Source: Escherichia coli
GTDB lineage: Bacteria > Pseudomonadota > Gammaproteobacteria > Enterobacterales > Enterobacteriaceae
DNA length: 64,000 nt
Assembly: GCF_030013595.1 (NCBI RefSeq)
Contig: NZ_CP122768.1
Reading direction: 5' to 3' (one strand)
Both the position numbers and the translations under genes were made by a program. Shown here one piece after another: positions 4,485 to 44,833 of this stretch; position 1 is the stretch's first letter; each line of letters starts with the position of its first letter. The notes beneath the pieces were generated by a model. The model saw only the letters and a list, made by a program, of their open reading frames with translations, had not been told where the DNA came from and made no database searches.

Positions 4485-4691
4485 CGGCAGTACCGCGAAA
4501 CAACCCAAGCCAGTAAGTGGGGAAATAACTGAAAGATGAACCTCCAGCCTTATGGCAAAAAAGATTCTTTGTGGTGGCGGACTGATGGAAAGACATCGGA
4601 TAGAATAAAACAGTGGCTAGGGTAGCTCCCGAAAAGCGGAATCGTCACCGCCAGCCACTGAATCTATGACGAACAACTAGACGAGGTTGAT

Positions 4692-7369: not shown

Positions 7370-9535
7370 ATGGCCGACGAAAACAGACTCAATTCCATTC
7401 TGTGTAAGTTTGACGCAGACTGGATGGCGAGCGATGAAGCCAGAACCGAGGCGACAAATGACCTGTATTTTAGCCGAGTGTCGCAATGGGATGACTGGCT
7501 ATCAAACTACACCACCCTGCAATATCGCGGACAATTCGATGTTGTCCGCCCGGTTGTCAGGAAGTTGGTCGCAGAGATGCGCCGGAACCCTATCGACGTT
7601 CTCTTCCGACCAAAAGACGGTGCTAATCCTGATGCTGCCGATGTGCTGATGGGGATGTATCGTACTGATATGCGCCATAACACGGCAAAAATTGCCGTTA
7701 ATGTTGGCGTTCGTGAGCAGATAGAGTCAGGCGTTGGTGCATGGCGTCTGGTCACGCAGTACGAAGACAACGACCCAACAAGCAACAATCAGGTAATCCG
7801 ACGCCTGCCAATCCATGAAGCCTGCTCACACGTCATATGGGACGCCAACAGCAAGCAGATGGATAAGAGCGACGCTAAGCACTGCACGGTGATTAACGCC
7901 TTGTCACGCAATGGCTGGAAAGAGTTCGCAGAGGATTACGGTATTGATCCTGACACCTTGCCATCTTTCCAGAATCCGAACGATACATGGCTGTTTCCGT
8001 GGGTATCGAATGATGTCGTCTACGTCGCTGAGTATTACGAGGTCGAAGAGAAGAAGGAGAAGGTCTTCATCTACCGCGACCCGCTGACAGGTGAGCCGGT
8101 CAGCTATTACCAGCAGGATATCAAAGACGTCATCGACGACCTGGCTAATCGTGGATTCATTAAGGTAGCAGAGCGCAAGGTGAAGCGTCGGCGTGTGTAT
8201 AAGTCGATCATCACCTGCACGCAGATACTGAAAGACCGAGAAAAGATAGCCGGAGAGCATATCCCAATCGTTCCAGTGTATGGAGAATGGTCATTCGCTG
8301 GTGACAAGGAGTGCTACGAAGGAGTGGTAAGGCTGACGAAAGACGGTCAACGCCTTCGTAACATGATCATGTCATTCAACGCCGATATTGTTGCTCGTTC
8401 ACCGAAGAAGAAACCGACCTTCTTCCCTGAGCAAATCGAAGGCTACGAATACATGTACGGTGGAAATGATGACTATCCGTACTATCTGCAGAACAGGACC
8501 GATGAAAACGGTAACGACCTGCCGATTGGTCCAATCTCCTACATGGAAAACCCTGAAGTGCCGCAAGCCAACGCTTATATGCTTGAGGCTGCCACCAACG
8601 CAGTGAAAGAGGTGGCTAGTCTTGGTGTGGATGCGCAGGCAGCAAACTCTCAGGTCGCTTTCGATACCGTCAATCAACTGAACATGCGGGCAGACCTTGA
8701 GACATACGTGTTTCAGGATAACCTGGCTACCGCAATGCGACGTGATGGCGAGATTTATGCCTCAATGGTCAACGATATTTATGACGTTCCTCGTCATGTA
8801 ACGCTGACACTTGAAGATGGAAGCGAGAAAGACGTTCAACTCTATGCGCAAGTTGTCGATTACCAGTCCGGCAATGTGGTCACACTCAACGACATTCGTG
8901 GTCGCTATGAGTGCTATACAGACGTTGGACCATCCTTCCAGAGTATGAAGGAACAGAACCGCGCAGAGATTCAGGAGTTACTCACCAAGGTTCCGCAAGG
9001 TACTCCAGAGTTCCAGATGCTGATGCTGCAATACTTCACGCTCCTTGACGGTAAAGGCGTCGAGATGATGCGAGAGTACGCGAACAAGCAACTGGTGATG
9101 ATGGGGCTGAAGAAACCAGAAACACCTGAAGAGATGGAGATGGTACAACAGGCACAACAACAGCCGCAGCAGCCATCAGCAGAGCAAATTCAGGCGCAGG
9201 GTATCCTTCTGCAAGGTCAGGCTGAATTGCTCAAGGCAGAGAACCAACAGGCACAGATTCAGGTTGAAGCCGCCAAGGTTGAAGCCCAAAACCAACTCAA
9301 CGCCGCGAAGATTGCAGAAATCTTCAACAATATGGACCTCGACAAGCAGGCAGAACTGCGTGAGTACCTCAAGCTAGTAGGTCAATTCCAGCAACAGCGC
9401 AGCAAAGATGCTCGTGCTAACGCTGAGCTGCTTCTTAAAGATGCAGACCAGAATCATTCACAACGCATGGATTTCGCGAATCTTATGCGTCAAGTTCAAA
9501 TCCCCTCCGGCGGAGTAGCCGAGACACCTCAATAA
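7370..9535 (+). CDS. Portal protein (P22 gp1-like)
   Basis: 721 aa; Gln-rich C-terminal coiled-coil barrel region; position after terL. Confidence 0.85.
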
Positions 9536-9548
9536 GAGAGAGTTAATC

Positions 9549-10460
9549 ATGGACCAAACCACCGACATTCAGGCTTCTGAAGAATTAACCCTGCCCGGCA
9601 ATCATGCAGCGGCATCTGCTGATGGCTTAGTTGTCGATAATGCCAACGACAACGCAGGTCAGGAAGAAGGCTTTGAGATTGTCCTGAAAGACGATGAGAA
9701 ACCAAAACAAGACCCGGCAACTAATGCTGAATTTGCCCGTCGCCGCATCGAACGCAAACGCCAGCGTGAGCTTGAGCAGCAGATGGAAGCGGTTAAGCGT
9801 GGAGAGTTGCCGGAGCACCTGCGGGTGAACCCTGAGTTACCAAAACAACCAGACCCTAACGATTATCTTTCCGAAGATGCACTGGCTAAGTACGACTATG
9901 ACCAGAGCCGCGCACTGGCTGCCTTCCAGCAGGCAAACAGTGAATGGCAGATCAAGGCTATGGACGCACGAAGCCAGGCTGTCGCCGAGCAGGGCCGCAA
10001 AACTCAGGAGTTCACCCAGCAATCAGCGCAATACGTCGAGGCCGCCCGTAAGCACTACGATGCAGCGGAAAAGCTTAATATCCCTGACTATCAGGAGAAA
10101 GAGGATGCATTCATGCAACTGGTGCCGCCAGCAGTCGGTGCCGACATCATGCGCCTCTTCCCGGAGAAATCCGCCGCTCTCATGTATCACCTTGGTGCTA
10201 ATCCTGAGAAAACACGCCAGTTGCTGGCGATGGACGGGCAATCCGCGCTGATTGAACTCACTCGACTGTCAGAACGTTTAACTCTCAAGCCTCGAGCAAA
10301 GCCTGTTTCAGAAGCCCCGTTACCTGATGAACCCATTCAGGGACACGCTGTTGCTGCAAATATCTCTGCGATTGAAAAGCAGATGGAAGCGGCAGCAAAC
10401 AAAGGGGATGTAGAGACGTACCGCAAGCTCAAGGCGCAACTGAATAAAGGAATTCGATAA
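9549..10460 (+). CDS. Scaffolding protein (P22 gp8-like)
   Basis: 303 aa, highly charged helical protein between portal and coat. Confidence 0.8.
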
Positions 10461-11755
10461 TGGCATTAAATGAAGGTCAACTGGTCACGTATGCTCTGGA
10501 TGAAATCATCGAAACCGTCCAGAACCTGACGCCAATGGCGTCCAAAGTGACAAAATACACCCCTCCGGCAGAATCCATGCAGCGTTCAAGCAACACCGTG
10601 TGGATGCCTGTTGAGCAGGAAGCGCCAACCCAGACTGGCTGGGATTTAACTGGCAACGCAACCGGGATTCTGGAACTCTCCGTGAAATGCAACATGGGCG
10701 ATCCGGATAACGATTTCTTCGAGCTTCGTGCAGATGACCTGCGTGATGAGCGTTCTTACCGTCGCCGCATCCAGGCATCCGCCAAAAAACTGGCGAATAA
10801 CATTGAGTCAGCGATTGCCAAACAGGCAACTGAAATGGGCTCGCTTGTTGTTCACGATACCCGCGCAATTGGTCCATCTACTGGCCTTTCTGGCTGGGAT
10901 TTTGTGTCTGATGCAGAGCGCCTGATGTTCTCCCGTGAGCTAAACCGCGATATGGGCATCAGTTACTTCCTGAACCCTGACGATTACCGCAAAGCAGGCC
11001 GCAACCTGGTAGATGGTGACATCTTCGGGCGCGTTACTGAAGACGCGTATCACAACGGTACTATTCAGCGTCAGATTGCTGGCTTTGATGAAATTCTTCG
11101 CTCACCGAAACTTCCCGCAGTTACCAAGTCAACCGCTACTGGTGTAACTGTTTCTGGTGCGCAGAAGTTTAAGCCGCAGGCATACACCCTTGATACCGAT
11201 GGTAACAAAGAGAACGTCGATAACCGTGTTGCAACGGTGACCGTATCCTCCACCACCGGATTTAAGCGCGGCGACAAAATCAGCTTCACTGGTGTGAAAT
11301 TCCTGTCTCAGATGGCGAAGAACGTGCTGACTGATGATGCGACTTTCTCAATCACCCGTGTGATCGATGGTACTCACATCGAAATCACGCCGAAGCCGAT
11401 TGCGCTGGATGACGCGTCACTGACAAAAGAAGAGAAGGCTTACGCTAACGTAAACACCTCTCTTGCTGATACCACTCCGGTAAACGTTCTGAACGTGGCA
11501 ACAACCACCGCTAACGTGTTCTGGGCTGATGACTCAATCCGTCTGCTGTCTCAGCCGATCCCGGTAACCCATGAACTGTTTGCTGGCATGAAAACGTCTT
11601 CCTTCAGCATTCCTGGTATTGGTGTTAACGGCATCTTCGCAACGCAGGGGGATATCAACACTCTGTCTGGCAAGTGCCGTATTGCTGTGTGGTATTCAGC
11701 ATGTGCTGTACGACCAGAGGCAATTGGTGTTGGTCTGCCTAACCAGACCGCGTGA
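10460..11755 (+). CDS. Major capsid (coat) protein (P22 gp5-like)
   Basis: 431 aa; [22 protein letters not shown]... closely matches recalled P22 coat protein. Confidence 0.9.
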
Positions 11756-11799: not shown

Positions 11800-12054
11800 A
11801 TGACACACATGATCTTTCGTCATGGAGACATGAAGAAGTGGAAAGGCGTTGGATACGACTTTGAAATCGTGAAAGCCGAAGAGCTTCAGGAATATCTGGA
11901 TGCTGGCTGGTTTGCACATCCCGATGACCTTCTGAAGGATGTTGCAGAGTCAGAGCCAGAGCTAGAACCAGAGTCAGAGCCAGAAGAAAAACAGCGTAAA
12001 AAGCCTGGTCGAAAACCTAAGGCGGTAGCAGATGAACCTGACAACGAAGGGTGA
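11800..12054 (+). CDS. Hypothetical acidic small protein between coat and gp4
   Basis: ATG at 11800 preceded by GGAGA; 84 aa with [13 protein letters not shown] acidic repeat; the ORF-track start at 11752 would lie inside the terminator. Confidence 0.5.
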
Positions 12055-12532
12055 TTTAGTTCTTGCGGCATTACGTAAGCTCGGTGTGGCATCAAATGCC
12101 ACGTTAACCGATGTCGAACCGCAGTCTATGGAAGATGGCGTCAACGACCTTGAAATGATGATGGCTGAATGGCTTGGCGGTGATGCGTCACCTGGGATCA
12201 ACGTTGGCTACATTTTCGCTGATGCAGATGTCGCTCCAGATCCGGGCGATGAGCACGGCTTATCAAATAACGCTATAAATGCCGTCATTTTCAACCTTGC
12301 CTGCCGCATTGCTCCAGATTATGCGCTGGAAGCGCCAGCAAAACTTATAACCACTGCCAGATACGGGAAAGAGCGACTCGTCAAACCGTCTGCAATGGAC
12401 AGAGCAAAAGCCGCTAAATGTAAGTCCGGTTATCCAAACCGTATGCCTGTTGGTAGCGGTAACCAGTTGGCGAAGTGGAATGGTTGGAATTACTTCCACC
12501 GAAAGGAACCTTGCGATAACGGGAGCGAATAA
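12032..12532 (+). CDS. Head completion / tail accessory protein (P22 gp4-like)
   Basis: 166 aa, same length and position as P22 gp4. Confidence 0.75.
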
Positions 12533-13951
12533 ATGCCGATTCAGCAACTTCCGCTTATGAAAGGTGTCGGCAAAGACTTTCGAAACGCCGACTATATCGA
12601 CTATCTGCCAGTGAATATGCTGGCTACACCCAAAGAAATCCTGAACAGCAGCGGATATCTTCGCTCATTCCCTGGCATTGCCAAACGCTCTGATGTGAAC
12701 GGTGTATCTCGCGGCGTCGAGTACAACATGGCGCAGAATGCTGTTTATCGTGTGTGTGGTGGCAAGCTGTACAAAGGAGAAAGTGAAGTCGGTGACGTCG
12801 CCGGAAGTGGTCGCGTATCAATGGCGCATGGTCGTACATCTCAGGCGATAGGTGTTAATGGTCAACTGGTCGAGTATCGCTATGATGGCACGATTAAAAC
12901 CGTCTCAAACTGGCCTACAGATAGTGGATTCACTCAGTATGAGCTAGGTTCGGTTCGTGACATTACGCGCTTACGTGGGCGTTATGCGTGGTCAAAAGAC
13001 GGCACTGATTCATGGTTTATCACTGATCTTGAAGACGAATCGCATCCTGACCGCTACAGCGCACAATATCGTGCCGAGTCTCAGCCGGACGGCATCATCG
13101 GCATCGGCACATGGAGAGACTTCATCGTCTGCTTTGGTTCATCGACGATTGAATATTTCTCCCTGACTGGTGCAACCACCGTTGGTGCTGCTTTGTATGT
13201 CGCACAGCCATCACTGATGGTGCAGAAAGGCATTGCCGGGACTTACTGCAAAACGCCGTTTGCTGACTCGTATGCGTTCATCAGCAATCCGGCAACAGGT
13301 GCGCCGTCTGTATACATCATCGGCTCCGGTCAGGTATCACCAATCGCCAGCGCGAGCATTGAGAAAATACTACGCTCCTACACTGCTGATGAACTGGCTG
13401 AAGGCGTGATGGAATCGCTGCGGTTTGATGCGCATGAGTTGCTGATTATCCATCTTCCGCGCCATGTTCTCGTATACGACGCATCTTCAAGCGCCAATGG
13501 TCCGCAATGGTGTGTATTGAAAACAGGCCTGTATGACGATGTGTACCGCGCTATCGACTTCATTTACGAAGGCAATCAGATAACGTGCGGCGATAAGCTG
13601 GAATCGGTGATCGGGAAATTGCAGTTCGATATCAGCAGCCAGTACGACAAGCAACAGGAACACCTGCTGTTTACTCCGTTGTTCAAAGCGGATAACGCCA
13701 GATGCTTTGATCTGGAGGTGGAATCATCGACTGGTGTTGCGCAGTATGCTGACCGCCTGTTCCTCTCTGCAACCACTGACGGCATCAATTACGGTCGTGA
13801 GCAGATGATTGAGCAGAATGAACCGTTCGTTTACGACAAACGCGTTTTGTGGAAGCGAGTTGGGCGCATCAGGAAAAATGTCGGCTTCAAATTGCGCGTT
13901 ATCACTAAGTCACCTGTCACTCTGTCAGGCTGCCAGATAAGGATTGAGTAA
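12533..13951 (+). CDS. Tail accessory protein (P22 gp10-like)
   Basis: 472 aa, same length and position as P22 gp10. Confidence 0.75.
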
Positions 13952-14799
13952 TGGCTGATTCGAATCTCAATGTGCCGGTAATCATTCAGGCTACACGGCT
14001 CGACACATCAGTCCTTCCACGCAATATCTTCTCGCAGTCGTATCTGCTTTACGTTATCGCACAGGGTACTGATGTTGGTAACGTGGCGAACAAAGCCAAC
14101 GAGGCCGGACAGGGTGCTTATGACGCACAAGTCAGGAACGATGAGCAGGATGTGATTCTCGCTGACCATGAGCAGCGAATTTCTGCTGCGGAAGCAACGC
14201 TTGTTAATCATGAGGAGCGAATCAGCCAGGCAGAATCAACTCTTCAGGAACATGAAACGCGAATCGCTCAGAATGAAAGCGATATTGCGTCGCTTGATAC
14301 CAGAGTTCAGTCGCTGGAGTCGCAGGTTTCAGACCATGAATCGCGCATCGATTCTCTGGAGTATGCCACTACTCGCAAAAAGTCAGAGGTTGTTTACTCT
14401 GGCGTATCTGTAACCATTCCGACAGCGCCGACCAACCTTGTTAGCCTGCTGAAAACGCTCACGCCGTCATCAGGCTCGTTGGCACCATTCTTCGACACCG
14501 TTAACAACAAGATGATTGTGTTCAACGAGAACAAAACCTTGTTCTTCAAGCTGTCGATCGTCGGGACGTGGCCCAGCGGAACAGCCAACAGGTCAATGCA
14601 GCTAACCTTTTCCGGCTCTGTTCCTGACACACTGGTAAGCAGTCGCAACTCGGCTACAACAACCGATAACATCCTGTTAGCTACGTTCTTCAGCGTGGAT
14701 AAAGACGGCTTTCTTGCCACAAATGGCAGCACGTTAACCATCCAGTCAAATGGTGCGGCGTTTACTGCCACAACTATCAAAATCATTGCGGAGCAGTGA
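13951..14799 (+). CDS. Tail needle protein (P22 gp26-like) with C-terminal knob extension
   Basis: 282 aa; N-terminal heptad-repeat coiled coil ([41 protein letters not shown]) followed by an extra C-terminal domain. Confidence 0.75.
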
Positions 14800-15942: not shown

Positions 15943-17325
15943 ATGGCTAGTTGGCAACAAGGAATCAACTCAGGCGGCTTTCTTGCTGGTATCGGTGGGC
16001 AAAACTCAAATGCGCCAAAGGCAAGTGATGTAAGTGAGGCGTTGGCCTATATTCGCCAGAACAACGAAATGGAGCGCTCAGGTCGCAATAACATCGGCCT
16101 TCAGGCGTTGCAGGGGCTTGGTAGTGTCGCTCAAACATATCAAGCCGCAAAGCAACAGGAATTCCAAAAAGAATATGCGGCAGCCATCCAGTCAGGTGAT
16201 CGGCAGCAGGTGCGAGATCTGATGACCAAATATCCTGGTCAATTAGAGAAGATTCAGTCTGGTATGAAGTGGGCAGACGAAGACCAGCGCAATTCTATCG
16301 GCACCTTAGCGGCTGGCGCACGCCTTGCGTCATCGTCTCCAGAAGCAATGCAATCATGGCTGCAAAACAACGCCAAGGAACTGGCGCGCGTCGGTGTTGA
16401 CCCTAACAGCGTTGCTCAGATGTATCAGCAAAACCCTTCAGGATTTGGTGAGTTTGTTGATCACCTTGGAATGGCTGCTCTTGGTCCGATTGATTACTTC
16501 AATGTTCAGGACAAGATGGCTGGTCGTGAAATTGACCGAGGCAAACTGGCAGAGACAATCCGCAGCAATCAGGCTGGCGAGGCGCTAACAGCACGAGGCC
16601 AGAACATCACGATGCGCGGTCAGGACTTATCTGCTTCTACTGCGCGACGAGGTCAGGATTTGGCAATGCAGCGAGCGTCAACAAGACGAATCGCTGGGAA
16701 TGATGAGCGTACAGTTCAGTTATCAGATGGCAGAACTGTAACGGTAGGCGGGAAGCTTCACGGCGCTGGGGCTAATGCGTTCTACGAAGGCATCGACAAC
16801 GAGGGGAATATGGTTCGCGTCCCTGCTGGCTCTATTGCCGCTCCGGCTACATCGGCAGCAAGCGCGCAGAATTACGCAATGAAGAAAGATCTTGATGCAA
16901 TTTCTGGTGCATCAATTGACGATCTTGGCTTCATGACTGGCATTACAGGCTCTTCAGGTTCTCCTGCTCTTGGTGCAGATATTCGTAGCCGTGCATCTGG
17001 TGGTGATCAGAGGAAACTATACAACGCTGCACAGCGAATCCAAGGAAAGATGCAGAATCAGGGCATTGCAGCAGCCAGAGACATGGGGGCATCCGGTATC
17101 AACACCGTTGCAGAAGCAAAGATGTATTTTCAAGGTATGCCACAGGTTGATTTCTCAAGCCCTGAAGCACTGCAACAATCAATGCGCGACATTCAGCAAT
17201 ATACCGACAATTACAACCAGCAATATAACGTTAATGTTGGTAAATCTCAGCGGCAGCAATCTCAACCTGCACAGGTATCACAGCCAGCAGCCAGCAGTAA
17301 CTTTTCTTCACTATGGGGTGATTAA
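15943..17325 (+). CDS. Ejection protein, P22 gp20-like
   Basis: 460 aa; position and composition as P22 gene 20. Confidence 0.7.
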
Positions 17326-19430
17326 TGGCTAAAGCATGGAAAGATGTTATCGCTTCTCCACAGTATCAGGCGTTAGCACCAGAACAAAAAGCGCAGGCTC
17401 AGGAGCAATACTTCAATGAAGTCGTGGCCCCGCAAGCCGGAGAAAGTGTAGAGCAGGCTAAGCAGGCTTTTTATGCTGCCTATCCACTACCATCAACGAA
17501 TGAAATAGACCGATACCAATCAGCAACTCAAAATATTCAACATACATCATCTGATAATTCTCTTGCGTCAGGGTATGCAAAGTTAGCTACTCAGCAAAGA
17601 GAGGGGCTTGAGCGTTCAGCAGAACAGGGAGCCAGTCTTGGGGCTGCGATGCGCGATGCTATAACAGGCGAAAGCCGAATGACTCCAGAGATGGAGAGAC
17701 TGCAAAATGTCGACCTTGCCCCAGAGTTAACCTCACTCAGCATGGATGCTCTAAAAGCTCGATGGTCTCAACTTTTCGGCTCTGACGCATCTCAGGAAAA
17801 GATTCTTCAGAGCATGGGAGCGAAATTAAGGCAGGATGAGAAGGGGAACACTATCGTTTCCCTGCCATCCGGTGATTATGCTCTGAACAAGCCGGGTTTA
17901 TCGCCGCAAGACGTGGCATCGTTTCTGGCTAATGCGCTGGCGTTTACACCAGCGGGCAGGGCTGGAACGGTGCTTGGTGCCATAGGAAAATCAGCAGCTA
18001 CAGATTTAGCACTACAGGGAGCCACCAGCCTTGCTGGTGGAGAAGATATTGATCCGTTACAAACGGTAATTTCTGCTGGCATTGGTGGTATTGGTAAGGG
18101 GCTGGAAAATACAGCGAGTGCGGTTTCGAGGGCTGTTCGTGGTGATATGTCGCCTGAAGCAAAGGCTGCTGTCGACTTTGCATCGGAAAGAAATCTGCCG
18201 TTAATGACCAGTGACATGCTGAAAGATAAAACCTTTATGCAGAGTCAGGCTCAGACATTAGGCGAAAGAGTTCCTTTTTTTGGAACCGGTAAGAATCGGC
18301 TGAATCAACAACAAGCACGAGAAAATTTAGTCAGAACATTTAGCGATGGTCTGGGTGGTATTTCTGATAAACAGCTTTATGAATCTGCGACTAAAGGGCA
18401 ACAAAAATTCATTGAGGCAGCAGGAAAGCGATATAACCGCATAATTGACGCTATGGGGGATACCCCTGTCGATCTCTCAAACACGGTAAAAGCTATCGAC
18501 AATCAGATTGCCGTGTTAAGCCGCCCGGGCAAATCTCAGGATAGAGCCGCGGTAAAAGTCTTGCAGCAATTTAAAGACGATATCACCAGCGGGCCAAATG
18601 ACCTGCGTCTGGCGAGGGAAAACAGAACCGATCTTCGAAAGCGATTTATGGCGTCATCTGACACTGTTGATAAAGATACGCTCCAGAAAGCCAGCGATAT
18701 TATCTACAAGGCATATACGGCGGATATGAAAAAAGCCGTAGCCAAAAATCTTGGAGCAGACGAAGCCATTAATATGGCAAGGGTTGATCGCTCATGGTCT
18801 AAATTCAATGACATGATGGGAAGAACGCGCGTTCAAAAGGCAATAGCCAGCGGCAAGGCCACGCCTGAGGATGTAACAAAACTCGTTTTTAGCCAAAGCC
18901 CATCAGAACGTTCTCAGCTTTACAGGCTTCTGGATGACAATGGTAGGCAAAACGCACGAGCAGCCATAGTTCAGAATGCTGTAGATAAGGCGACTGATCC
19001 GTCTGGAAATATCAGTGTTGAGAAGTTTATTAATGCGTTACACCGGAACAGGAAGCAATCAGCAACTTTCTTTAAAGGCGTACATGGAAAGGAACTGGAC
19101 GGCGTTATTAAATACCTCAACGATACAAGACACGCGGCAAAAGCGAACGTTCAAAACTTAAATGGTCAGCAGCTTTATGGATTGTTAGTTGGTGGTGGCA
19201 TCATAAACGCAGCAGTATTAGCGGGGATGCTAAAAACGGCTGCGTTTGTTGTTCCTGCTGCTGGTGCCGTAGGCGGAGCAGCGAAGGCATACGAAAGCCC
19301 TGTTATACGAAATGCCTTGTTACGTCTGGCAAATACGCCAAAAGGTAGCACAGCATATGACAGAGCGATCAGTACGGTCACACAATCGCTCACCAGAGTC
19401 GCACAGGCATCACAAAAAGAAGCTCAATAA
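17325..19430 (+). CDS. Ejection protein, P22 gp16-like (longer than I recall for P22)
   Basis: 701 aa; last gene of the rightward virion operon. Confidence 0.7.
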   Translation: MAKAWKDVIASPQYQALAPEQKAQAQEQYFNEVVAPQAGESVEQAKQAFYAAYPLPSTNEIDRYQSATQNIQHTSSDNSLASGYAKLATQQREGLERSAEQGASLGAAMRDAITGESRMTPEMERLQNVDLAPELTSLSMDALKARWSQLFGSDASQEKILQSMGAKLRQDEKGNTIVSLPSGDYALNKPGLSPQDVASFLANALAFTPAGRAGTVLGAIGKSAATDLALQGATSLAGGEDIDPLQTVISAGIGGIGKGLENTASAVSRAVRGDMSPEAKAAVDFASERNLPLMTSDMLKDKTFMQSQAQTLGERVPFFGTGKNRLNQQQARENLVRTFSDGLGGISDKQLYESATKGQQKFIEAAGKRYNRIIDAMGDTPVDLSNTVKAIDNQIAVLSRPGKSQDRAAVKVLQQFKDDITSGPNDLRLARENRTDLRKRFMASSDTVDKDTLQKASDIIYKAYTADMKKAVAKNLGADEAINMARVDRSWSKFNDMMGRTRVQKAIASGKATPEDVTKLVFSQSPSERSQLYRLLDDNGRQNARAAIVQNAVDKATDPSGNISVEKFINALHRNRKQSATFFKGVHGKELDGVIKYLNDTRHAAKANVQNLNGQQLYGLLVGGGIINAAVLAGMLKTAAFVVPAAGAVGGAAKAYESPVIRNALLRLANTPKGSTAYDRAISTVTQSLTRVAQASQKEAQ

Positions 19431-36451: not shown

Positions 36452-36937
36452 ATGCAAGTTTTTATCATGCGTCACGGCGACGCAGCCCTCGATGCCGCCA
36501 GTGATTCGGTTCGTCCTCTGACTACTAACGGTTGTGACGAATCTCGCCTGATGGCGAACTGGCTGAAAGGTCAAAAAGTGGAAATCGAACGCGTTCTGGT
36601 GAGCCCGTTCCTGCGAGCCGAGCAAACACTGGAAGAAGTAGGGGATTGTCTGAACCTGCCTTCCAGTGCAGAAGTTCTGCCGGAGTTAACGCCCTGCGGC
36701 GATGTTGGTCTGGTCAGTGCCTATTTACAGGCGTTGACCAATGAAGGTGTTGCTTCGGTACTGGTGATCTCCCACTTACCCTTAGTCGGGTATCTGGTTG
36801 CTGAGTTATGTCCGGGCGAAACGCCGCCTATGTTTACCACCTCGGCCATTGCCAGCGTAACGCTTGATGAAAGCGGAAACGGCACATTCAACTGGCAGAT
36901 GAGCCCGTGTAATCTGAAGATGGCAAAAGCGATTTAA
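36452..36937 (+). CDS. sixA: Phosphohistidine phosphatase SixA
   Basis: 161 aa; N-terminal RHG catalytic motif (MQVFIMRHGDA). Confidence 0.9.
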   Translation: MQVFIMRHGDAALDAASDSVRPLTTNGCDESRLMANWLKGQKVEIERVLVSPFLRAEQTLEEVGDCLNLPSSAEVLPELTPCGDVGLVSAYLQALTNEGVASVLVISHLPLVGYLVAELCPGETPPMFTTSAIASVTLDESGNGTFNWQMSPCNLKMAKAI

Positions 36938-36950
36938 TACGCATGCACAA

Positions 36951-36987
36951 GGCCCGCTGGTGTAATCTATCGGGCCTTTATTTTTTT
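36951..36987 (+). terminator. Intrinsic terminator after sixA
   Basis: Hairpin ggcccg...cgggcc followed by long T-run. Confidence 0.8.
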
Positions 36988-37598
36988 CTGGCAATGTTGA
37001 ATTTATGCAATCTTATTGTACTAACAATGATCCGCTTGTGATCGAATGGTCTTTATTTTATACGGCATGACGCTTTTATTTGTAAAAATTTACATATTGA
37101 AAGAGAATTTACTTTTATTCATAAATTATTTTTCTGGAAGCATTTTTAGGTAAATAATGACTAAAGTGAAAAATATTATTGGGTCTTGATTTTATATTAA
37201 TTATAGTGTTTTAATATTATATCGTTGCGAAATTAATATCACAAGATAGTCATCGCCATGTGATTGTTTTTGACTTTAATTTATTCACTGGATTTTTGCA
37301 TTTGCCGTTTTTTTGAACTTATTCTTCATTATTGAGATGAAAAGTTTCAGTAATTATTATCCCCGACTATTAATTAAGTTTTTCTAACTTTGAATGTTAG
37401 AAAATCTAAATTGCATCAGTCATATTAAAATATCAACATGTTCGGCGCGCCAAAGAATATTATATCAAGGAACCTGTTTTTTCAGGAGCTGACAATCTGT
37501 TCATTGGCTGCTTAAAAGTCGCTGTAAAAATTGAAGAAGCTCTGTGTCAATATTTCAGTTGGCTTATATTCTAATTATTTATGATTTAAGGACAAATA

Positions 37599-38165
37599 AT
37601 GAGTAAGTTTGTAAAAGCAGCAGTTGCCACGGCAATGCTCATGGGGGCGCTGACTTCAGCATCAGTCGTTGCCGCAGGGAACAACGGTACAGTGAGATTT
37701 TACGGCACAATTGAAGACTCCCCGTGCTCAATTGTTCCTGACGATCATAAACTGGAAGTGGATATGGGCAGCATCGGTACGGGTTCTTTAACCGGCGGCA
37801 AAACAACCACACCAAAAGATTTCCAGATTCGTTTACAGGACTGTAATTTCAATACAGAAACGACAATGGCTACCACATTCACCGGTAATCCGTACTCCAC
37901 TAACGCAGATAACTATTCTCTGTCTAACATGGATAATGGAATTGAAATTCCAAACGTTAGCCTGGTTATCGGTGACCAGCACGGTACAGGTTATGCACTG
38001 GGAGCAGAGATTAAGCAACCTATCGTGAAGGACAGTTCAACGGGAAAAGGCAAGCCTAAACAAACTCTGAACTTTAAAGCATGGTTAGTGGGTGAAACGG
38101 ATGCTGTAACACCAACACCGGCACCGTTTGAAACGCTGACGACGTTCCAGATCACGTATCTCTAA
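37599..38165 (+). CDS. yfcV: Fimbrial major subunit (YfcV-like)
   Basis: 188 aa with signal peptide and fimbrial subunit C-terminal strand; first gene of chaperone-usher operon. Confidence 0.8.
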   Translation: MSKFVKAAVATAMLMGALTSASVVAAGNNGTVRFYGTIEDSPCSIVPDDHKLEVDMGSIGTGSLTGGKTTTPKDFQIRLQDCNFNTETTMATTFTGNPYSTNADNYSLSNMDNGIEIPNVSLVIGDQHGTGYALGAEIKQPIVKDSSTGKGKPKQTLNFKAWLVGETDAVTPTPAPFETLTTFQITYL

Positions 38166-38236
38166 TGTATTTCCCCCATAGCTGCAAAGTTATGGGGTTT
38201 ATAACTACCAAATAACTAAATTATAAAAAATCATGG

Positions 38237-40888
38237 ATGGATACGCCGATGCCAGAACATTCTTTTCTCCGTTTACGGGGGCTTTCGTGGTGGATTGCTC
38301 TGGCAATTTCTGGAAGTCCATTTAATGCCCTGGCAGACGATACCATTCAGTTTGATGGCCGATTTCTTGATTTAAAAGGCAATACCAAAATTGATTTGGG
38401 CCGTTTTTCGCAAAAAGGCTATGTAGAACCGGGAAAATATAACTTACGCGTTCATGTAAATAATCAGCCGTTACCTGACGACTACGATATCTACTGGTAC
38501 GCAACTGAAAACGATCCGAATAAATCATATGCCTGCTTATCGCCAGAGCTGGTTGCCCAGTTTGGTCTGAAGGAAGATATTGCGAAGAATTTGCAATGGA
38601 TCCGCGATGGTCAGTGTCTGAATACGGCACTTTTAGCAGGTACAGAAATTAGCGGCGATTTAGGCCAGTCTGCACTCCTTGTTTCTGTACCGCAGGCTTA
38701 TCTGGAATATACCGACAGCGAGTGGGACCCGCCTTCGCGCTGGGATGACGGTATCCCTGGGCTTATTGCCGATTACAGTATCAACGCGCAAACCCGACAT
38801 GAAAATGGGGGTGATGACACTAACGACATCAGCGGTAATGGTACGGTCGGCGTTAACGTTGGGCCGTGGCGCTTACGAGCTGACTGGCAGAGCGATTATC
38901 AGCATACCCGCAGTAACGATGACGGCGACACTGACGATAGCGGTACGCAAAAAAACTGGGAGTGGAGTCGTTACTACGCCTGGCGCGCCTTGCCGTCATT
39001 AAAAGCCAAACTTTCGCTGGGCGAAGATTATCTCAACTCCGATATTTTTGATGGCTTCAGTTACATTGGCGGCAGCATCAGTACCGATGATCAAATGTTA
39101 CCGCCAAACCTGCGCGGCTACGCCCCCGATATTTCAGGTGTTGCACACACTACCGCTAAAGTGACCGTAACCCAAATGGGCCGTGTCATTTACGAAACCC
39201 AGGTGCCCGCAGGGCCATTCCGCATTCAGGATATTGGCGATTCCGTCTCTGGCACGCTGCATGTCCGCATTGAAGAACAAAACGGCCAGGTACAAGAATA
39301 CGACGTCAGCACGGCGTCCATGCCGTTCCTGACTCGCCCCGGCCAGGTGCGTTATAAAGTGACAATGGGGCGTCCACAAAACTGGGACCATCAGGTTGCA
39401 GGTAGCTTCTTCTCGGGCGGCGAGGCATCGTGGGGGATTGCCAATGGCTGGTCGCTCTACGGCGGTGCGTTAGCCGATGAAAACTACCAGTCGGCGGCGC
39501 TGGGCCTCGGTCGTGACCTGGCGCTGTTAGGCGCGTTAGCGTTTGATGTCACTCACTCTCGTGTTCAACTCGACGATAACAGCGTGTATGGCAACAAAAC
39601 GCTGGACGGCAACTCTTATCGCGTCAGCTATGCCAAAGATTTCGATGAACTCAACAGTCGGGTGACGTTTGCTGGATACCGCTTCTCTGAAAAAAACTAC
39701 ATGACCATGAGCGAGTATCTGGATGCGAACGACGACGACCGGGCGCGCACCGGTAACGACAAAGAGATGTATACGGTCACCTATAACCAGAACTTCACGG
39801 ATGCGCGCGTTTCGGTCTATCTCAACTATTCCCACCATACCTACTGGGATCGCCAGGATCAGACCAACTACAACATGATGCTTTCTCATTATTTCAATTT
39901 AGGAAGCCTTCGCAACCTGAGCGTTTCTCTGACCGGTTATCGCTACGAATACGATAAAAGTGCCGACAAGGGTGTTTATCTGTCCTTAAGTTTGCCGTGG
40001 GGCGACAACAGCACTATCAGTTACAACGGCAACTATGGCAGCGGTGCCGACAGCAATCAGGTGAGCCTGTATCACCGCATTGATGACGCCAGCCACTACA
40101 CGTTAAGCGCCGGAACCAGCGAAAACCACAGCAGCGTGGATGGCTACTACAGCCACGATGGCACTCTGGCAAAAGTTGATCTCAGTGCTAACTACCATGA
40201 AGGGCAATACACCTCAGCGGGGATCTCTTTACAGGGCGGGGCAACGCTGACCGCTCACGGCGGGGCGCTGCATCGTACACAAAACATGGGCGGTACACGT
40301 CTGTTAATCGACGCTGATGGCGTTGCTAATGTGCCGGTTGAAGGTAATGGTTCCGCCGTTTATACCAACATGTTCGGCAAAGCGGTGGTGGCAGATGTGA
40401 ATGATTACTACCGCAACCAGGCTTATATCGATTTGAACAAACTGCCGGAAAACGCCGAAGCTACAAAATCAGTGGTTCAGGCAACGCTGACGGAAGGCGC
40501 TATTGGCTACCGTAAATTTGCGGTAATCAGCGGTGAGAAGGCGATGGCAGTGCTGCGCTTGCAGGATGGCAGCCATCCGCCATTTGGGGCGGAAGTGAAA
40601 AACGATAATCAACAACAAGTAGGGTTGGTTGATGACGAAGGTAATGTTTATCTGGCAGGCGTTAAACCGGGTGAACATATGACCGTTTTCTGGGAGGGTG
40701 AATCTCACTGCGATATCAGCCTGCCAGACCCGTTACCGAATGACCTGTTCAATGGCTTGTTGTTGCCATGCCAGCAAAAGGGGGGAAGTTCTCCCGTCAT
40801 ACCGCATGATATTCAACCCGTCATTCAGGAGCAGACACAACAGGTGACACCAATGGAACCGCCGATGTCTGTTTCATCGAACCAATAA
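38237..40888 (+). CDS. yfcU: Fimbrial outer membrane usher, full-length (YfcU-type)
   Basis: 883-aa uninterrupted ORF with usher features; from memory the K-12 counterpart is annotated as disrupted. Confidence 0.8.
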   Translation: MDTPMPEHSFLRLRGLSWWIALAISGSPFNALADDTIQFDGRFLDLKGNTKIDLGRFSQKGYVEPGKYNLRVHVNNQPLPDDYDIYWYATENDPNKSYACLSPELVAQFGLKEDIAKNLQWIRDGQCLNTALLAGTEISGDLGQSALLVSVPQAYLEYTDSEWDPPSRWDDGIPGLIADYSINAQTRHENGGDDTNDISGNGTVGVNVGPWRLRADWQSDYQHTRSNDDGDTDDSGTQKNWEWSRYYAWRALPSLKAKLSLGEDYLNSDIFDGFSYIGGSISTDDQMLPPNLRGYAPDISGVAHTTAKVTVTQMGRVIYETQVPAGPFRIQDIGDSVSGTLHVRIEEQNGQVQEYDVSTASMPFLTRPGQVRYKVTMGRPQNWDHQVAGSFFSGGEASWGIANGWSLYGGALADENYQSAALGLGRDLALLGALAFDVTHSRVQLDDNSVYGNKTLDGNSYRVSYAKDFDELNSRVTFAGYRFSEKNYMTMSEYLDANDDDRARTGNDKEMYTVTYNQNFTDARVSVYLNYSHHTYWDRQDQTNYNMMLSHYFNLGSLRNLSVSLTGYRYEYDKSADKGVYLSLSLPWGDNSTISYNGNYGSGADSNQVSLYHRIDDASHYTLSAGTSENHSSVDGYYSHDGTLAKVDLSANYHEGQYTSAGISLQGGATLTAHGGALHRTQNMGGTRLLIDADGVANVPVEGNGSAVYTNMFGKAVVADVNDYYRNQAYIDLNKLPENAEATKSVVQATLTEGAIGYRKFAVISGEKAMAVLRLQDGSHPPFGAEVKNDNQQQVGLVDDEGNVYLAGVKPGEHMTVFWEGESHCDISLPDPLPNDLFNGLLLPCQQKGGSSPVIPHDIQPVIQEQTQQVTPMEPPMSVSSNQ

Positions 40889-40907
40889 CGTGATTAAGGA
40901 ATGATCC

Positions 40908-41657
40908 ATGACTAAATATCTCTCTGCCAAAACATTGACAACGGTACTGTCGTTACTGGCAGCAACGGTAAGTTTTTCTGCTCAGGCGTCAGTAACGCCC
41001 GATCGTACTCGCCTGATTTTTAATGAAAGCGATAAATCTATCAGTGTGACGCTGCGTAATAACGACCCCAAACTGCCTTATCTGGCGCAAAGCTGGATTG
41101 AAGATGAAAAGGGCGTCAAGATCAGCTCGCCGCTGGCGGTATTGCCGCCTGTACAGCGCATTGAAGCAATGATGAATGGCCAGGTTAAAATTCAGGGCCT
41201 GCCGGATATTCATAAATTACCTGCCGATCGGGAATCGATGTTCTATTTCAACGTGCGCGAAATTCCGCCGAAATCGAACAAATCCAACACGCTACAAATC
41301 GCTCTTCAGACGCGTATCAAACTTTTCTGGCGACCGAAAGCTCTGGAAAAAAACACCACGCAAAACCCGTGGCAGCATAAAGTGACCTTAACCCGCAACG
41401 GTCAGGAATTTACTGTCAATAACCCTACGCCGTATTACGTCATTTTCAGTAATGCCAGCGCACAGAAAAATGGCAATCCGGCAGCCGGTTTCTCGCCAAT
41501 AGTGATGTCGCCGAAAACCTCTGCACCGCTGAATGTGAAGATGGGGAGTGTGCCGGTACTGACCTATGTCAACGACTATGGCGCTCGGATGCCGCTCTTT
41601 TTCACCTGCAACGGCAATAGTTGCCAGGTTGATGAAGAGCAGAGCCGCAAAGGCTGA
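40908..41657 (+). CDS. yfcS: Fimbrial periplasmic chaperone (YfcS-like)
   Basis: 249 aa PapD-like chaperone with signal peptide. Confidence 0.8.
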   Translation: MTKYLSAKTLTTVLSLLAATVSFSAQASVTPDRTRLIFNESDKSISVTLRNNDPKLPYLAQSWIEDEKGVKISSPLAVLPPVQRIEAMMNGQVKIQGLPDIHKLPADRESMFYFNVREIPPKSNKSNTLQIALQTRIKLFWRPKALEKNTTQNPWQHKVTLTRNGQEFTVNNPTPYYVIFSNASAQKNGNPAAGFSPIVMSPKTSAPLNVKMGSVPVLTYVNDYGARMPLFFTCNGNSCQVDEEQSRKG

Positions 41658-41672
41658 GGCCGGGAGTGTGAG

Positions 41673-42164
41673 ATGAAACGACTACTTTTGGCCGGGCTGG
41701 GAGGAGTGCTGCTTACGGGCAGTGCTCTTGCCGGTGAAACGAAAAGTGTGCCATTGACATTGCGCGTACTGGTAGACCCACCACCTCCTTGTACCGTAAA
41801 AGGCAGTAACGTCGATTTTGGTGATGTGATCATCAAAAAAATCAATGGTACTGAATATCGCAAAGATGCAGGTTATACCCTGAACTGTGCCAATAGCCTG
41901 AGCGATGACCTTCAGATGCAGTTTAAGGGCACAACCACCACGATCAATGGCGAAACGGTGTTAAGCACGGGAATTACCGGGTTTGGCATTCGTATTGAAA
42001 ATGCAGCCGATAACTCTCTGTTTGCGATTGGCGACAATACCTGGACTCCATTTAGCGTCAGTAGCCAGCCACAACTCAAAGCAGTGCCAGTCAAACAGGA
42101 TGGCGTGACGCTGACAGGCGCGCAGTTTAACGCCAGCATGACAATGGTGGTGGATTACCAATGA
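41673..42164 (+). CDS. yfcR: Fimbrial subunit (YfcR-like)
   Basis: 163 aa, signal peptide, fimbrial subunit features, synteny. Confidence 0.7.
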   Translation: MKRLLLAGLGGVLLTGSALAGETKSVPLTLRVLVDPPPPCTVKGSNVDFGDVIIKKINGTEYRKDAGYTLNCANSLSDDLQMQFKGTTTTINGETVLSTGITGFGIRIENAADNSLFAIGDNTWTPFSVSSQPQLKAVPVKQDGVTLTGAQFNASMTMVVDYQ

Positions 42165-42640
42165 AACGACTCTCGTTAATTTTATTATCCGCTTTTTGCA
42201 CCATAACGCATGCCGCACCGGAAGATATCACCTTCACGGGTACGCTGATCGAACCTCCGGTCTGCACCGTCAGCAATGGTGATGATATTGAGATCCAGTT
42301 TATCGACGTCATTATCGACAATATTGACGGGGTTAATTACCGCAAAGATGTTCCGTACCAGATAACGTGTGACCCTGATATTACCGATGACGCCTGGGTA
42401 ATGACGCTAACCTGGACCGGTACACAGACCAGCTATAACGATGCGGCGATTCAGACGGATGTCACGGGATTAGGGATTGAACTCCAGCAAAACGGTCAGC
42501 CCTTTAAGCTGAATACCCCGCTTAACGTGACACCCGCCAACCTGCCGAAGTTGAAGGCCGCACCTGTAAAAGCTTCCGATGCCACGCTGACTGACGGTAA
42601 CTTTTCCGCTTACGCCACATTGCAGGTGGATTATCAATGA
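42161..42640 (+). CDS. yfcQ: Fimbrial subunit (YfcQ-like)
   Basis: 159 aa, signal peptide, fimbrial subunit features, synteny. Confidence 0.7.
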   Translation: MKRLSLILLSAFCTITHAAPEDITFTGTLIEPPVCTVSNGDDIEIQFIDVIIDNIDGVNYRKDVPYQITCDPDITDDAWVMTLTWTGTQTSYNDAAIQTDVTGLGIELQQNGQPFKLNTPLNVTPANLPKLKAAPVKASDATLTDGNFSAYATLQVDYQ

Positions 42641-43182
42641 ACAAACTGAAGAAATATCAATGTATCAGGGTGCAAACCTTTCTGTTGTGCGGTGTGCTGG
42701 TGCTGGCGAGTCATTCAGCACTGGCAGCTAATAATTTGCATTTTTACGGCAACCTGATGAGCAAAACCTGTACTCCGGTGGAACAGGCTGGAACGTTGGC
42801 AGAGGTACAGTTTGCGAATATTAGCCACAAAGATTTGATGGTGCGCGGTCAGTCCGATCGTGTACCGGTGGTTTTTCGCCTGAAAGATTGCCGTGGGCCA
42901 GCGCAGTACAGCGTAAAAGTTACCCTGACCGGAACAGAAGACAGTGGGCAACCGGGATTCCTCGCTCTGGATGGTACCTCCGGCGCACAGGGCGTAGGCA
43001 TTGGTATGGAAACTACTGATGGTACTGCTGTTGCTATTAATAACACGACGGGAGTGACCTTTGTGCTGAATGATGGCAATAACAGTCTTAATTTCAGAGC
43101 ATGGTTACAGGCAAAAGAGGGGCGTGATGTAACACCTGGTGATTTTACCGCCCAGTTAACCGCAACGTTTGAGTATATTTAA
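42637..43182 (+). CDS. yfcP: Fimbrial subunit (YfcP-like)
   Basis: 181 aa, signal peptide, fimbrial subunit features, synteny. Confidence 0.7.
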   Translation: MNKLKKYQCIRVQTFLLCGVLVLASHSALAANNLHFYGNLMSKTCTPVEQAGTLAEVQFANISHKDLMVRGQSDRVPVVFRLKDCRGPAQYSVKVTLTGTEDSGQPGFLALDGTSGAQGVGIGMETTDGTAVAINNTTGVTFVLNDGNNSLNFRAWLQAKEGRDVTPGDFTAQLTATFEYI

Positions 43183-44047
43183 GATGAAAATAATGCGCTG
43201 GATTTTGGGCCTGCTGATATCACTTTTCTTCAGTACAGCAGTTCAGGCGAATGTCATTGTTGCAACAATGTATACACCGATAGGGTATGCAAGCTACACA
43301 ACGAAGATAACTTATTATCTTGATGTTCTTACCCCCGATAGCGTCAATCACGGTGTTTATGAGACACCAAATAACACCGGTTTAATCACTGGATGGATAC
43401 CTTTGAAAAGCTGGACGGGACCTGGCCCTGCACCATCATTAAAAGTCATATCGATGACAGCGATATCACAATCATCTTGTCCGGGGCTTGCAGAGTATGA
43501 CAGCCGTGCGCAAAGGACGATGTGGACTTGTTATGAAATACGAATGGAAGTCTGGAAGGAAGACTCCAGCGTTCATGGCTGCCCGTGGCTGGTATCGACA
43601 CATGCAGATAGCATTGATCTTATTGATCCTGCTCCGGGAACCTATTCCGGACGCACAGTCAGTAACTCTTCTTGTCCACCTATACCGTTAGGGCCTTATG
43701 ATGTCTCCTGGAATGAAAGTCGGGTTGTGCATGATAAGACGTTAGCGCTCCAGTCTACCGGCGGGATAATTGAAAAAACGCTCTCCACCTACCTGATGAA
43801 AGACGGCAAACTGTGTGACGGCAGCAAATTTGGTGATACTGACGATCGTGGTGCTTATTGTCGTTGGGTGTCGCAGATGCTCACCTTCACCTCATCGGGC
43901 TGTGACAATGCCAAAGTGACGGTAACACCAAATCGTCACCCCATTACCGACAAAGAGCTTCATGATATGGTGCTTCGCGTGGATACCACCTCGCGGCAAC
44001 CTATTGATTCTACCTGTCGATTCCAGTACGTGCTGAATATGCTGTAG
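43169..44047 (+). CDS. yfcO: Putative fimbrial tip adhesin-like protein (YfcO-like)
   Basis: 292 aa Cys-containing secreted protein at the operon end. Confidence 0.65.
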   Translation: MSIFKMKIMRWILGLLISLFFSTAVQANVIVATMYTPIGYASYTTKITYYLDVLTPDSVNHGVYETPNNTGLITGWIPLKSWTGPGPAPSLKVISMTAISQSSCPGLAEYDSRAQRTMWTCYEIRMEVWKEDSSVHGCPWLVSTHADSIDLIDPAPGTYSGRTVSNSSCPPIPLGPYDVSWNESRVVHDKTLALQSTGGIIEKTLSTYLMKDGKLCDGSKFGDTDDRGAYCRWVSQMLTFTSSGCDNAKVTVTPNRHPITDKELHDMVLRVDTTSRQPIDSTCRFQYVLNML

Positions 44048-44067
44048 TAGTTCGTCGTTGTGCACTG

Positions 44068-44104
44068 ATGCCTGATGCGACGCTGAAGCGTCTTATCAGG
44101 CATT
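44068..44104. repeat. REP (repetitive extragenic palindromic) element
   Basis: gcctgatgcgacgctgaagcgtcttatcaggc imperfect palindrome typical of E. coli REP. Confidence 0.8.
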
Positions 44105-44116
44105 CGATGCCAGCAT

Positions 44117-44668
44117 TCACGGTAATTCCGGTGGCAACCACTCATCCACTTCAATCAACACCAGCAATGCCGCATCACCACCGTACTCTTTTGGTGCCTG
44201 GTGAAATGCCATCACATGCGGATGTTGCGCCAGCCACAGCGGCGTTTGCTGCTTCAAAATATGCTTCCCATGACCATGCATCACGCAGGCACAAAACACA
44301 TGTTCGCGGCGACAGGCGGCAATCAATGCACCTAACTCCTGCTTGGCTTGCAGCTGCGTCAAACCGTGCAAATCCAAAAACAGCTCCGGTGAATAATCGC
44401 CACGGCGTAACTTCTTCGCCTCAAAATGGCTTACATCTGGGCGAACATATTTCACCGGACCTTCGGTATTCAACAACGGCTGAAACTCATCGGAAAAATA
44501 ATGGCTGGCATCGGCCTGCTCCTGAATCAACCGCTTTACTGGCACTTCGCTGATTTTCTTACGCTGCGGTCGGTGGACAATCGTGTCCTGCTTAATCTTG
44601 CGAGTCCCCGCCATCAACTGGCGAAACAGCGCCTGGTCCTCCTCGCTAAGTGTTGTTTTCTTTTTCAT
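44117..44668 (-). CDS. smrB: Ribosome rescue endonuclease SmrB
   Basis: 183 aa with C-terminal Smr domain; synteny with prmB. Confidence 0.9.
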
Positions 44669-44833
44669 TTATCTGTCTCTATTTCTAATTTTCCTACAGT
44701 TTACCCGACTCGTAGCGCAATCGATCGTTTTAAACGTATTTTTCCTCACTCACCGCGCGTGAATGCTGATTTATCGTCATCTTCATGGCAAACTAGCCGC
44801 CGAAATTATTGCGATCATGCCCTGGAGGAATAC

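Follow-up and report, generated by a model that had tools for sequence, protein, structure and literature searches.

The open usher gene in the yfc chaperone-usher operon of this Escherichia coli strain raises the question whether the strain may be able to assemble Yfc fimbriae, and whether its operon is simply that of K-12 freed of a lesion, as implied by an earlier note on the stretch of 64,000 nucleotides analysed here (the window). We consider, with a probability of roughly 0.9, that the gene is the intact usher of a complete Yfc-type operon, which corresponds in E. coli to stfACDEFGH of Salmonella and lies at its usual chromosomal position, flanked by sixA and smrB.

In the ORF listing of the window, positions 38237 to 40888 on the plus strand form one reading frame of 883 codons with an ATG start and zero internal stops. 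The uninterrupted frame reported in the earlier note was thus recovered, with no frameshift or other lesion, but its length of 883 aa probably has to be revised. The RefSeq start in near-identical genomes is placed 12 nt downstream (MPEHSF...), and since this start agrees with those of the K-12 (MPDHS) and CFT073 (MPNHS) ushers, the predicted protein probably has 879 aa. It is identical to RefSeq WP_001114066.1, and the exact protein is present on at least 1,000 public contigs; full-length ushers fall into clusters of 1,723, 12,700 and 3,733 member sequences. The usher of P0001 was rejected as an exact copy, as it is listed as 100% identical, yet differs at 3 residues.

The domains of a PapC/FimD-family usher are found in this single polypeptide, with Pfam matches along its entire length: PapC_N (38-184), Usher (201-761; E 5.5e-188, profile positions 3-549 of 549) and PapC_C (772-828). 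The alignment with full-length PapC (PDB 7lhg_C) runs end to end (query 34-842 vs 2-806 of 809, E 2.6e-221), and the window usher carries an extra C-terminal tail of ~40 residues past it. A PapD-like chaperone gene begins 20 nt after the usher stop and four Fimbrial-domain genes are found in the neighbourhood. The pi and gamma clades of chaperone-usher systems are those of the Nuccio and Baumler scheme. The usher scores 740 bits against PapC (E 2.6e-221) and about 273 bits against FimD, which represents the gamma ushers (E about 1e-80), which places it in the pi clade, to which yfc, a core locus of the pi family, has been assigned (PMC3559732, PMC5216030, PMC3032704). PapC and PapD of the P pilus (PDB 7lhg) are the best solved relatives of the window usher and chaperone, and both systems belong to the pi clade; however, the P pilus differs in gene order and has PapG as its adhesin, whereas that of the window is a DUF2544 protein.

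The complete yfcV-to-yfcO operon that had been proposed is indeed present (Table 1). Its seven genes, encoding a major subunit, the usher, a chaperone, three minor subunits and an adhesin of the StfH/YfcO family, lie in the K-12 order, and the six besides the usher are likewise open and, by ORF length and Pfam match, of the size and family to be expected. The flanking genes fadI, fadJ and sixA upstream and smrB and prmB downstream correspond to the K-12 yfc position. The chaperone (E 1.3e-60 against PapD, 7lhg_D) retains the DRTR motif (PapD Arg8), the QT(R/K)IKLF lysine (PapD Lys112) and the C-terminal Cys pair. The mechanical ORF of the adhesin starts at a TTG at 43169 and gives 292 aa, and DUF2544 (PF11245) covers 52-292 of that translation. 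This DUF2544 protein is the last in the operon, the RefSeq product name of a near-identical gene is 'StfH/YfcO family fimbrial adhesin', and the exact sequence of this predicted adhesin is found on 141 public contigs.

Table 1. Features of the yfc locus and its flanks (window coordinates).
Feature	Position	Strand	Remarks
sixA	36452-36937		Upstream flank; window ORF listing
AT-rich intergenic region, 661 bp, presumed promoter/regulatory region	36938-37598	+	Between sixA and major-subunit gene
Major fimbrial subunit, YfcV/StfA position, 188 aa	37599-38165	+	Pfam Fimbrial PF00419, E 5e-18; first operon gene, as K-12 yfcV
Outer-membrane usher, YfcU/StfC orthologue, PapC-like, probably 879 aa	38249-40888	+	Open ORF, Pfam, PapC 7lhg alignment, WP_001114066.1
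Periplasmic PapD-like chaperone, YfcS/StfD position, 249 aa	40908-41657	+	PapD_N and PapD_C
Minor subunit, YfcR position, 163 aa	41673-42164	+	Pfam Fimbrial, E 2.2e-16; first gene of exchangeable distal cassette
Minor subunit, YfcQ position, 159 aa	42161-42640	+	Pfam Fimbrial, E 2.7e-14
Minor subunit, YfcP position, 181 aa	42637-43182	+	Pfam Fimbrial, E 3.9e-20
Predicted tip adhesin, StfH/YfcO family, 287 aa	43184-44047	+	DUF2544, E 5.2e-73; last operon gene
smrB	44117-44668	-	Downstream flank; window ORF listing

The Yfc type has been defined by usher phylogeny and locus position (Wurpel et al., 2013; PMC3559732). The sixA-smrB (yfcN) position is the same in the window, K-12, CFT073 and O157, so that the usher does belong to the yfc operon, as had been claimed. 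The window usher is 77-80% identical to the ushers of K-12, O157 and CFT073 and 59-63% identical to those of E. marmotae, Pseudocitrobacter and the two Salmonella ushers compared (StfC included). In an NJ tree without bootstrap values, all E. coli usher classes group with the ushers of E. albertii and E. fergusonii.

What does not hold is the implied notion of a K-12 allele minus its lesion, as the window usher has 80% amino acid identity and a dS of ~1.9 to K-12 yfcU. Compared with K-12, identity is 84% for the chaperone, 66% for the major subunit (72% to CFT073, 99.5% to KE55), 60, 60 and 65% for the minor subunits at the YfcR, YfcQ and YfcP positions, and 49% for the adhesin (49% also to CFT073; 43-45% to M00057, CT265 and O157). 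With only 80% of usher and 49% of adhesin residues shared with K-12, the window operon is, on these protein comparisons, a separate allelic form and not the K-12 operon without one mutation. Over the operon, protein identity is 49-84% to K-12 and 49-77% to CFT073, compared with 97-100% for the flanking proteins, and the usher classes approach saturation at synonymous sites (dS about 1.7-1.9). The region upstream of the operon, with a GC content of 27% in 37000-37499 vs ~50% on either side, is also allele-specific as far as the boundary alignment indicates: in MAFFT alignments limited to the two boundary regions, identity to K-12, CFT073 and O157 falls from 92-100% to about 30-55% directly after the sixA stop.

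Such values might be taken to mean that a distinct fimbrial type has replaced Yfc at the same locus and that yfcU of K-12 belongs to a different system. The low identity of the operon relative to its flanks, the near-saturated dS and the unalignable promoter region would agree with this, and Archer et al. gave the O157/W-like cluster at sixA-yfcN separate names, eso/epo (PMC3032704). However, the seven genes match throughout in chromosomal position, order, number and Pfam family. The ushers of the different classes share 77-90% identity and group together, compared with 57-64% for those of E. marmotae and Pseudocitrobacter and the two from Salmonella, and the Wurpel criteria make them one type (PMC3559732). 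We therefore regard a replacement as very unlikely, and the choice between the two as largely a question of naming.

Within the Yfc type, the locus has at least four allelic classes that are deeply diverged, and the window carries one of them. Among complete genomes, 3,090 carry a K-12-type usher and 1,224 a CFT073-type or B2-type usher (both at >=95%), 633 a window-type usher (>=90%) and about 356-445 an O157-type usher. Megablast with the window usher matched 989 of the 5,426 genomes, K-12 not among them, and the comparison across classes was done on the K-12 and CFT073 protein alignments; the whole window operon was covered to at least 80% in 240 of the 5,426. Part of this allelic diversity has been noted in passing in genome papers (PMC2608844, PMC3032704). 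Moreover, the locus is a mosaic, in which the four distal genes are swapped as a cassette. The usher of M00057 is 99.9% identical to that of the window, its distal subunits are only 48% (YfcR position), 51% (YfcQ) and 57% (YfcP) identical and its adhesin 43-45%; the three minor subunits and the tip adhesin (window about 41,660-44,100) are thus exchanged independently of the yfcV-usher-chaperone module. The E. coli usher classes interleave with the ushers of E. albertii and E. fergusonii. As a tentative proposal, somewhat less probable than its opposite, the sixA-smrB segment of 7.2 kb would be an ancient multi-allelic, possibly trans-species polymorphism with an independently exchanged distal cassette. 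Import from other Escherichia species is an equally possible source of the divergence as selection.

The statement of the earlier note that K-12 yfcU is disrupted proved accurate: the gene (b4661) has a pseudogene annotation, and MG1655 carries a single in-frame TAG at codon 579 of 881. The K-12 alignment, which the earlier note had named beforehand as the check, gave a Tyr in the window at this codon. Of the two outcomes that would have spoken against the note, an intact K-12 gene or an overlooked frameshift, neither was seen. The true intact K-12 usher allele is WP_001112832.1 of strain 51008369SK1, the nearest natural relative of K-12. It is annotated as intact, and a single nucleotide (TAG to TAC) separates MG1655 yfcU from it. 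Of the 5,426 complete genomes, 363 contain the exact 63-mer bearing the TAG, and almost all of the carriers that were sampled are labelled as K-12 laboratory derivatives; the amber mutation (Tyr579, TAC to TAG) is private to the K-12 lineage. In a sample of 18 non-K-12 genomes, the usher was intact in 16, and of the core fimbrial clusters yfc alone has been reported to be intact in every genome examined (Wurpel et al., 2013; PMC3559732). Ancestrally, and in most E. coli today, the usher is intact, with K-12 as the exception; the finding of an intact usher in the window is correct but ordinary. A full-text search for "yfcU" brought up little besides malaria papers, in which yFCU is a selection marker, and no paper on the K-12 stop codon among the literature covered.

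K-12 is not the only lineage with a broken usher. HCP5S3_I2, the nearest relative of the window with 3 SNPs over 11.8 kb, has a stop at usher Tyr725 (window-ORF numbering; Tyr721 of the 879-aa protein), CPww7 has a frameshift, and IS1 insertions are found in the ushers of H81, H176 and H237. These repeated independent knock-outs suggest that loss of the usher is tolerated. Against six other alleles, dN/dS of the window usher is 0.014-0.074 (0.014-0.015 vs 99%-identical alleles, 0.064 vs a 92% allele and 0.06-0.07 vs other classes), and the usher is therefore under strong, sustained purifying selection. A functionally dead usher or operon behind an open ORF, whether through inactivating missense mutations or as a recently silenced relic without a stop yet, would fit the recurrent knock-outs but is highly improbable in view of these dN/dS values, the recurrence of the exact protein on so many contigs, the full-length Pfam domains and the conserved key residues of the chaperone.

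For the intact usher of a complete operon, the canonical chaperone-usher pathway suggests how assembly would proceed. The seven products all have a signal-peptide-like N-terminus and would be exported by Sec. In the periplasm, the PapD-like chaperone would cap and fold the subunits, which would polymerise by donor-strand exchange at the PapC-like usher, a gated pore in the outer membrane. The YfcV-like protein would form the fibre shaft and, in the presumed subunit order, the StfH/YfcO-family protein would be placed at the tip; the three minor subunits might act as adaptors, a role proposed solely from gene order and family.

In the region upstream of the operon, promoter-like hexamers occur at 37332-37360 and 37191-37220 (plus strand); since such hexamers are no commoner than in shuffled sequence, no promoter was assigned, the consensus promoter/terminator scan of 36900-44700 having found 10 promoter-like sites vs 11.2 expected in shuffled sequence. 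Because the upstream region has a GC content of 27% and K-12 yfc has been described as cryptic, the operon is probably not expressed in laboratory culture. By analogy with other cryptic fimbrial operons of E. coli, fimbrial assembly by the strain would probably depend on de-repression. Korea et al. (2010), as cited in PMC5343171, forced the expression of yfc in K-12 and saw no Yfc fimbriae; this fits a broken usher, and the K-12 amber codon may explain why the fibres remained unseen. The same citation reports that K-12 with forced yfc expression still gained T24-cell binding, so that usher integrity does not translate simply into phenotype.

Among the closest known systems, K-12 yfcOPQRSUV shares with the window the sixA-smrB locus, the seven-gene order and the protein families, and differs in its TAG and in an upstream regulatory region that cannot be aligned to that of the window. 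The Yfc operon of the uropathogenic strain CFT073, at the same locus, has all seven genes intact like the window, but its usher is 77%, its YfcV 72% and its adhesin 49% identical. The stf operon of Salmonella enterica (stfACDEFGH) has the same gene order and an adhesin of the StfH/YfcO family, although StfC is only about 59% identical to the window usher. Indeed, stf has been described as orthologous to yfc, with StfH as its adhesin, and StfH alleles vary mainly in the N-terminal half, with changes in cell-binding preference (PMC5343171); the hypervariable adhesin at the window locus parallels this variation.

K-12 is consequently a poor reference for whether Yfc fimbriae can be made, and "yfc" stands for several very different allelic operons, so that functional results obtained with one allele should not be transferred to the others. 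This concerns typing as well. CFT073 yfcV is the marker for predicting uropathogenic E. coli of Spurbeck et al. (2012), as cited in PMC9629502; judged by the sequence, allele-specific yfcV typing may miss the window strain, and presence/absence typing based on CFT073 yfcV should not be extended to other alleles. The yfc locus could be a handy natural system for the modular exchange of fimbrial tip cassettes and, were its allelic diversity maintained by diversifying or balancing selection acting on receptor specificity or antigenicity, the combination found in the window would endow its lineage with an adhesive specificity of its own.

The earlier note had described the usher of the yfc chaperone-usher cluster as a single uninterrupted reading frame within a complete operon, and both descriptions are borne out. 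The ORF listing gives 883 codons with no internal stop, and three Pfam domains span the full length of the product (PapC_N 38-184, Usher 201-761, PapC_C 772-828), with positions 3-549 of the 549 in the Usher profile matched (E 5.5e-188). Full-length PapC (PDB 7lhg_C) aligns with the usher end to end (E 2.6e-221), FimD being far weaker (E ~1e-80). A length of 879 aa is more likely than 883, since the second in-frame ATG, at 38249, is the gene start in the RefSeq annotation of near-identical genomes and agrees with the N-termini of the K-12 and CFT073 ushers. The exact 879-aa protein (RefSeq WP_001114066.1) occurs on at least 1,000 contigs. Strong purifying selection in all comparisons made (dN/dS 0.014-0.074) argues for a working gene rather than a decaying one. 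The neighbouring genes are all open and of the expected families, sixA and smrB flank the cluster at a site identical to that of yfc in K-12, and the chaperone conserves the residues that correspond to PapD Arg8 and Lys112, as well as the pair of C-terminal cysteines.

Elsewhere in the window, a P22/Sf6-like prophage adjoins a tRNA-Arg(CCU) gene, presumably its integration site. Its 701-aa ORF at 17325-19430 had no Pfam match. The prophage region also holds tandem tRNA-Asn(GTT) and tRNA-Thr(TGT) genes and an Rfam int-alpA sRNA match (1951-2106 and 4610-4672; 42 bits for int-alpA vs a gathering score of 35.8).

Features of the window, with protein identity to K-12 and CFT073 for the yfc locus and its surroundings
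Feature	Position (strand)	K-12	CFT073
P22/Sf6-like prophage	1-26739
Large terminase	5870-7369
P22-type portal	7370-9535
Scaffold	9549-10460
P22 coat	10460-11755
Stabilisation protein	12533-13951
Sf6-type tail-needle knob	13951-14799
Injectosome translocase	15943-17325
Tailspike with head-binding domain	23377-25272
Integrase	25349-26539 (-)
tRNA-Arg(CCU)	26665-26739 (-)
FadJ		98%	98%
SixA		100%	98%
YfcV-like major subunit (Fimbrial domain)	37599-38165	66%	72%
Usher	38237-40888 (+)	80%	77%
PapD-like chaperone	40908-41657	84%	75%
Three minor subunits (Fimbrial domain)	41673-42164; 42161-42640; 42637-43182	60-65%	64-67%
StfH/YfcO-family adhesin (DUF2544)	43184-44047	49%	49%
SmrB		99.5%	99.5%

The disruption of the K-12 usher gene, which the earlier note had mentioned, is likewise real. 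The annotation of NC_000913.3 lists yfcU (b4661) as a pseudogene, and its translation reveals a single lesion: codon 579 of 881 is an in-frame TAG, where the open window usher has an aligned Tyr. The K-12 ORF is therefore not intact like that of the window, and no frameshift in the window usher had been overlooked. The natural allele closest to MG1655, in the dog isolate 51008369SK1, differs in yfcU by exactly one nucleotide, has TAC in place of the TAG and is annotated as intact. With the TAG at its centre, a 63-nt query matched exactly in 363 of the 5,426 complete genomes, and a further 2,674 genomes carry K-12-type sequence without an exact match. Seven of eight exact matches sampled are labelled as K-12 or laboratory strains, among them MG1655, JM109, ER1709 and a Dam/Dcm strain; the eighth, TP6-1, lists a human host. 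Those K-12 derivatives that have the amber suppressor glnV44 (supE44) would partly read through codon 579, so full-length YfcU may be made by some laboratory strains.

In RefSeq annotation of 18 non-K-12 genomes drawn from every allele class, the usher was intact in 16, and the two broken genes had unlike lesions: HCP5S3_I2 has an internal stop, CPww7 (NZ_CP075716.1) a frameshift. Clusters of full-length ushers in the protein collection hold 1,723 window-type, 12,700 K-12-type and 3,733 B2-type member sequences. The pig isolate HCP5S3_I2 (NZ_CM149870.1) is the nearest complete-genome relative of the window, with three SNPs over 11.8 kb; two lie in its usher (6013-8652), namely W537C and Y725* (TAC to TAG; W533C and Y721* in 879-aa numbering). 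The window lacks both this nonsense mutation (window 40409-40411) and the IS1397 found between yfcO and smrB in HCP5S3_I2 (11903-13251; window ~44088). LCP30S3_I5, the sister strain of HCP5S3_I2, gave an equal whole-operon match score. IS1 insertions split the usher in three further natural isolates with K-12-type and B2-type alleles (H81, H176 and H237). Together with the K-12 amber codon, these lesions show that usher loss is independent and fairly frequent, yet a minority state. Yfc had earlier been placed among core-associated fimbriae and reported as the sole cluster of this kind to be intact in every genome examined (Wurpel et al., 2013; PMC3559732). The intact usher is confirmed, and its interpretation is factually supported but ordinary.

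By homology, the operon encodes a chaperone-usher system of the pi clade and corresponds in E. coli to Salmonella stfACDEFGH (PMC5343171; PMC5216030). Subunits would be exported by Sec, captured by the PapD-like chaperone and polymerised at the PapC-like usher by donor-strand exchange, with the StfH/YfcO-family protein as putative tip adhesin and the YfcV-like protein as fibre shaft. The analysis itself establishes that the genes are intact, that their architecture and key chaperone residues are conserved and that the usher is under selective constraint; we infer the subunit order, as well as expression and assembly of Yfc fibres. According to PMC5343171, which cites Korea et al. (2010), forced yfc expression in K-12 gave no detectable fimbriae but a tenfold rise in binding to T24 cells; the lack of fibres fits a truncated usher.

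Judged by sequence, the window operon is more than a K-12 operon freed of a single mutation. Four classes emerged from usher searches of the 5,426 genomes: K-12-type (3,090 genomes, identity at least 95%), CFT073/B2-type (1,224, at least 95%), window-type (633 at 90% or more, 517 of them at 99% or more) and O157-type (~356-445). Synonymous divergence among them is near saturation (dS ~1.7-1.9), and E. albertii and E. fergusonii ushers interleave with the E. coli classes in a neighbour-joining tree computed without support values. The borders of the divergent segment are sharp: identity drops steeply directly after the sixA stop (36,937), so the 661-bp region upstream of the operon (27% GC) is allele-specific too, and is regained at ~44,150, within the 3' end of smrB. 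The whole yfc locus (window 36938-44150), with its AT-rich upstream region, occurs in at least four deeply diverged haplotypes.

The locus is also mosaic. Strain M00057 is ~99% identical to the window as far as 41,657, where the chaperone gene ends, ~50% over 41,700-44,000 and 99% again from 44,100; its YfcV, usher and chaperone products show 99.5-99.9% identity to those of the window, its four distal proteins only 44-57%. The exact usher protein occurs with two different distal cassettes, and only 240 genomes cover the whole operon at 80% or more, vs the 517 with the usher at 99% or more. The minor subunits and adhesin (yfcR-, yfcQ-, yfcP- and yfcO-position; ~41660-44100, 2.4 kb) therefore travel together and swap as a cassette.

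Earlier genome papers partly anticipated this diversity: three yfc genes of SE11 have only 52-59% identity to MG1655 (PMC2608844), and E. coli W carries at sixA-yfcN an O157-like pi cluster to which its authors gave its own name (PMC3032704). Beyond the intact usher, the depth and modularity of yfc allelic variation, partly known already, are the sole mildly interesting aspect of the locus.
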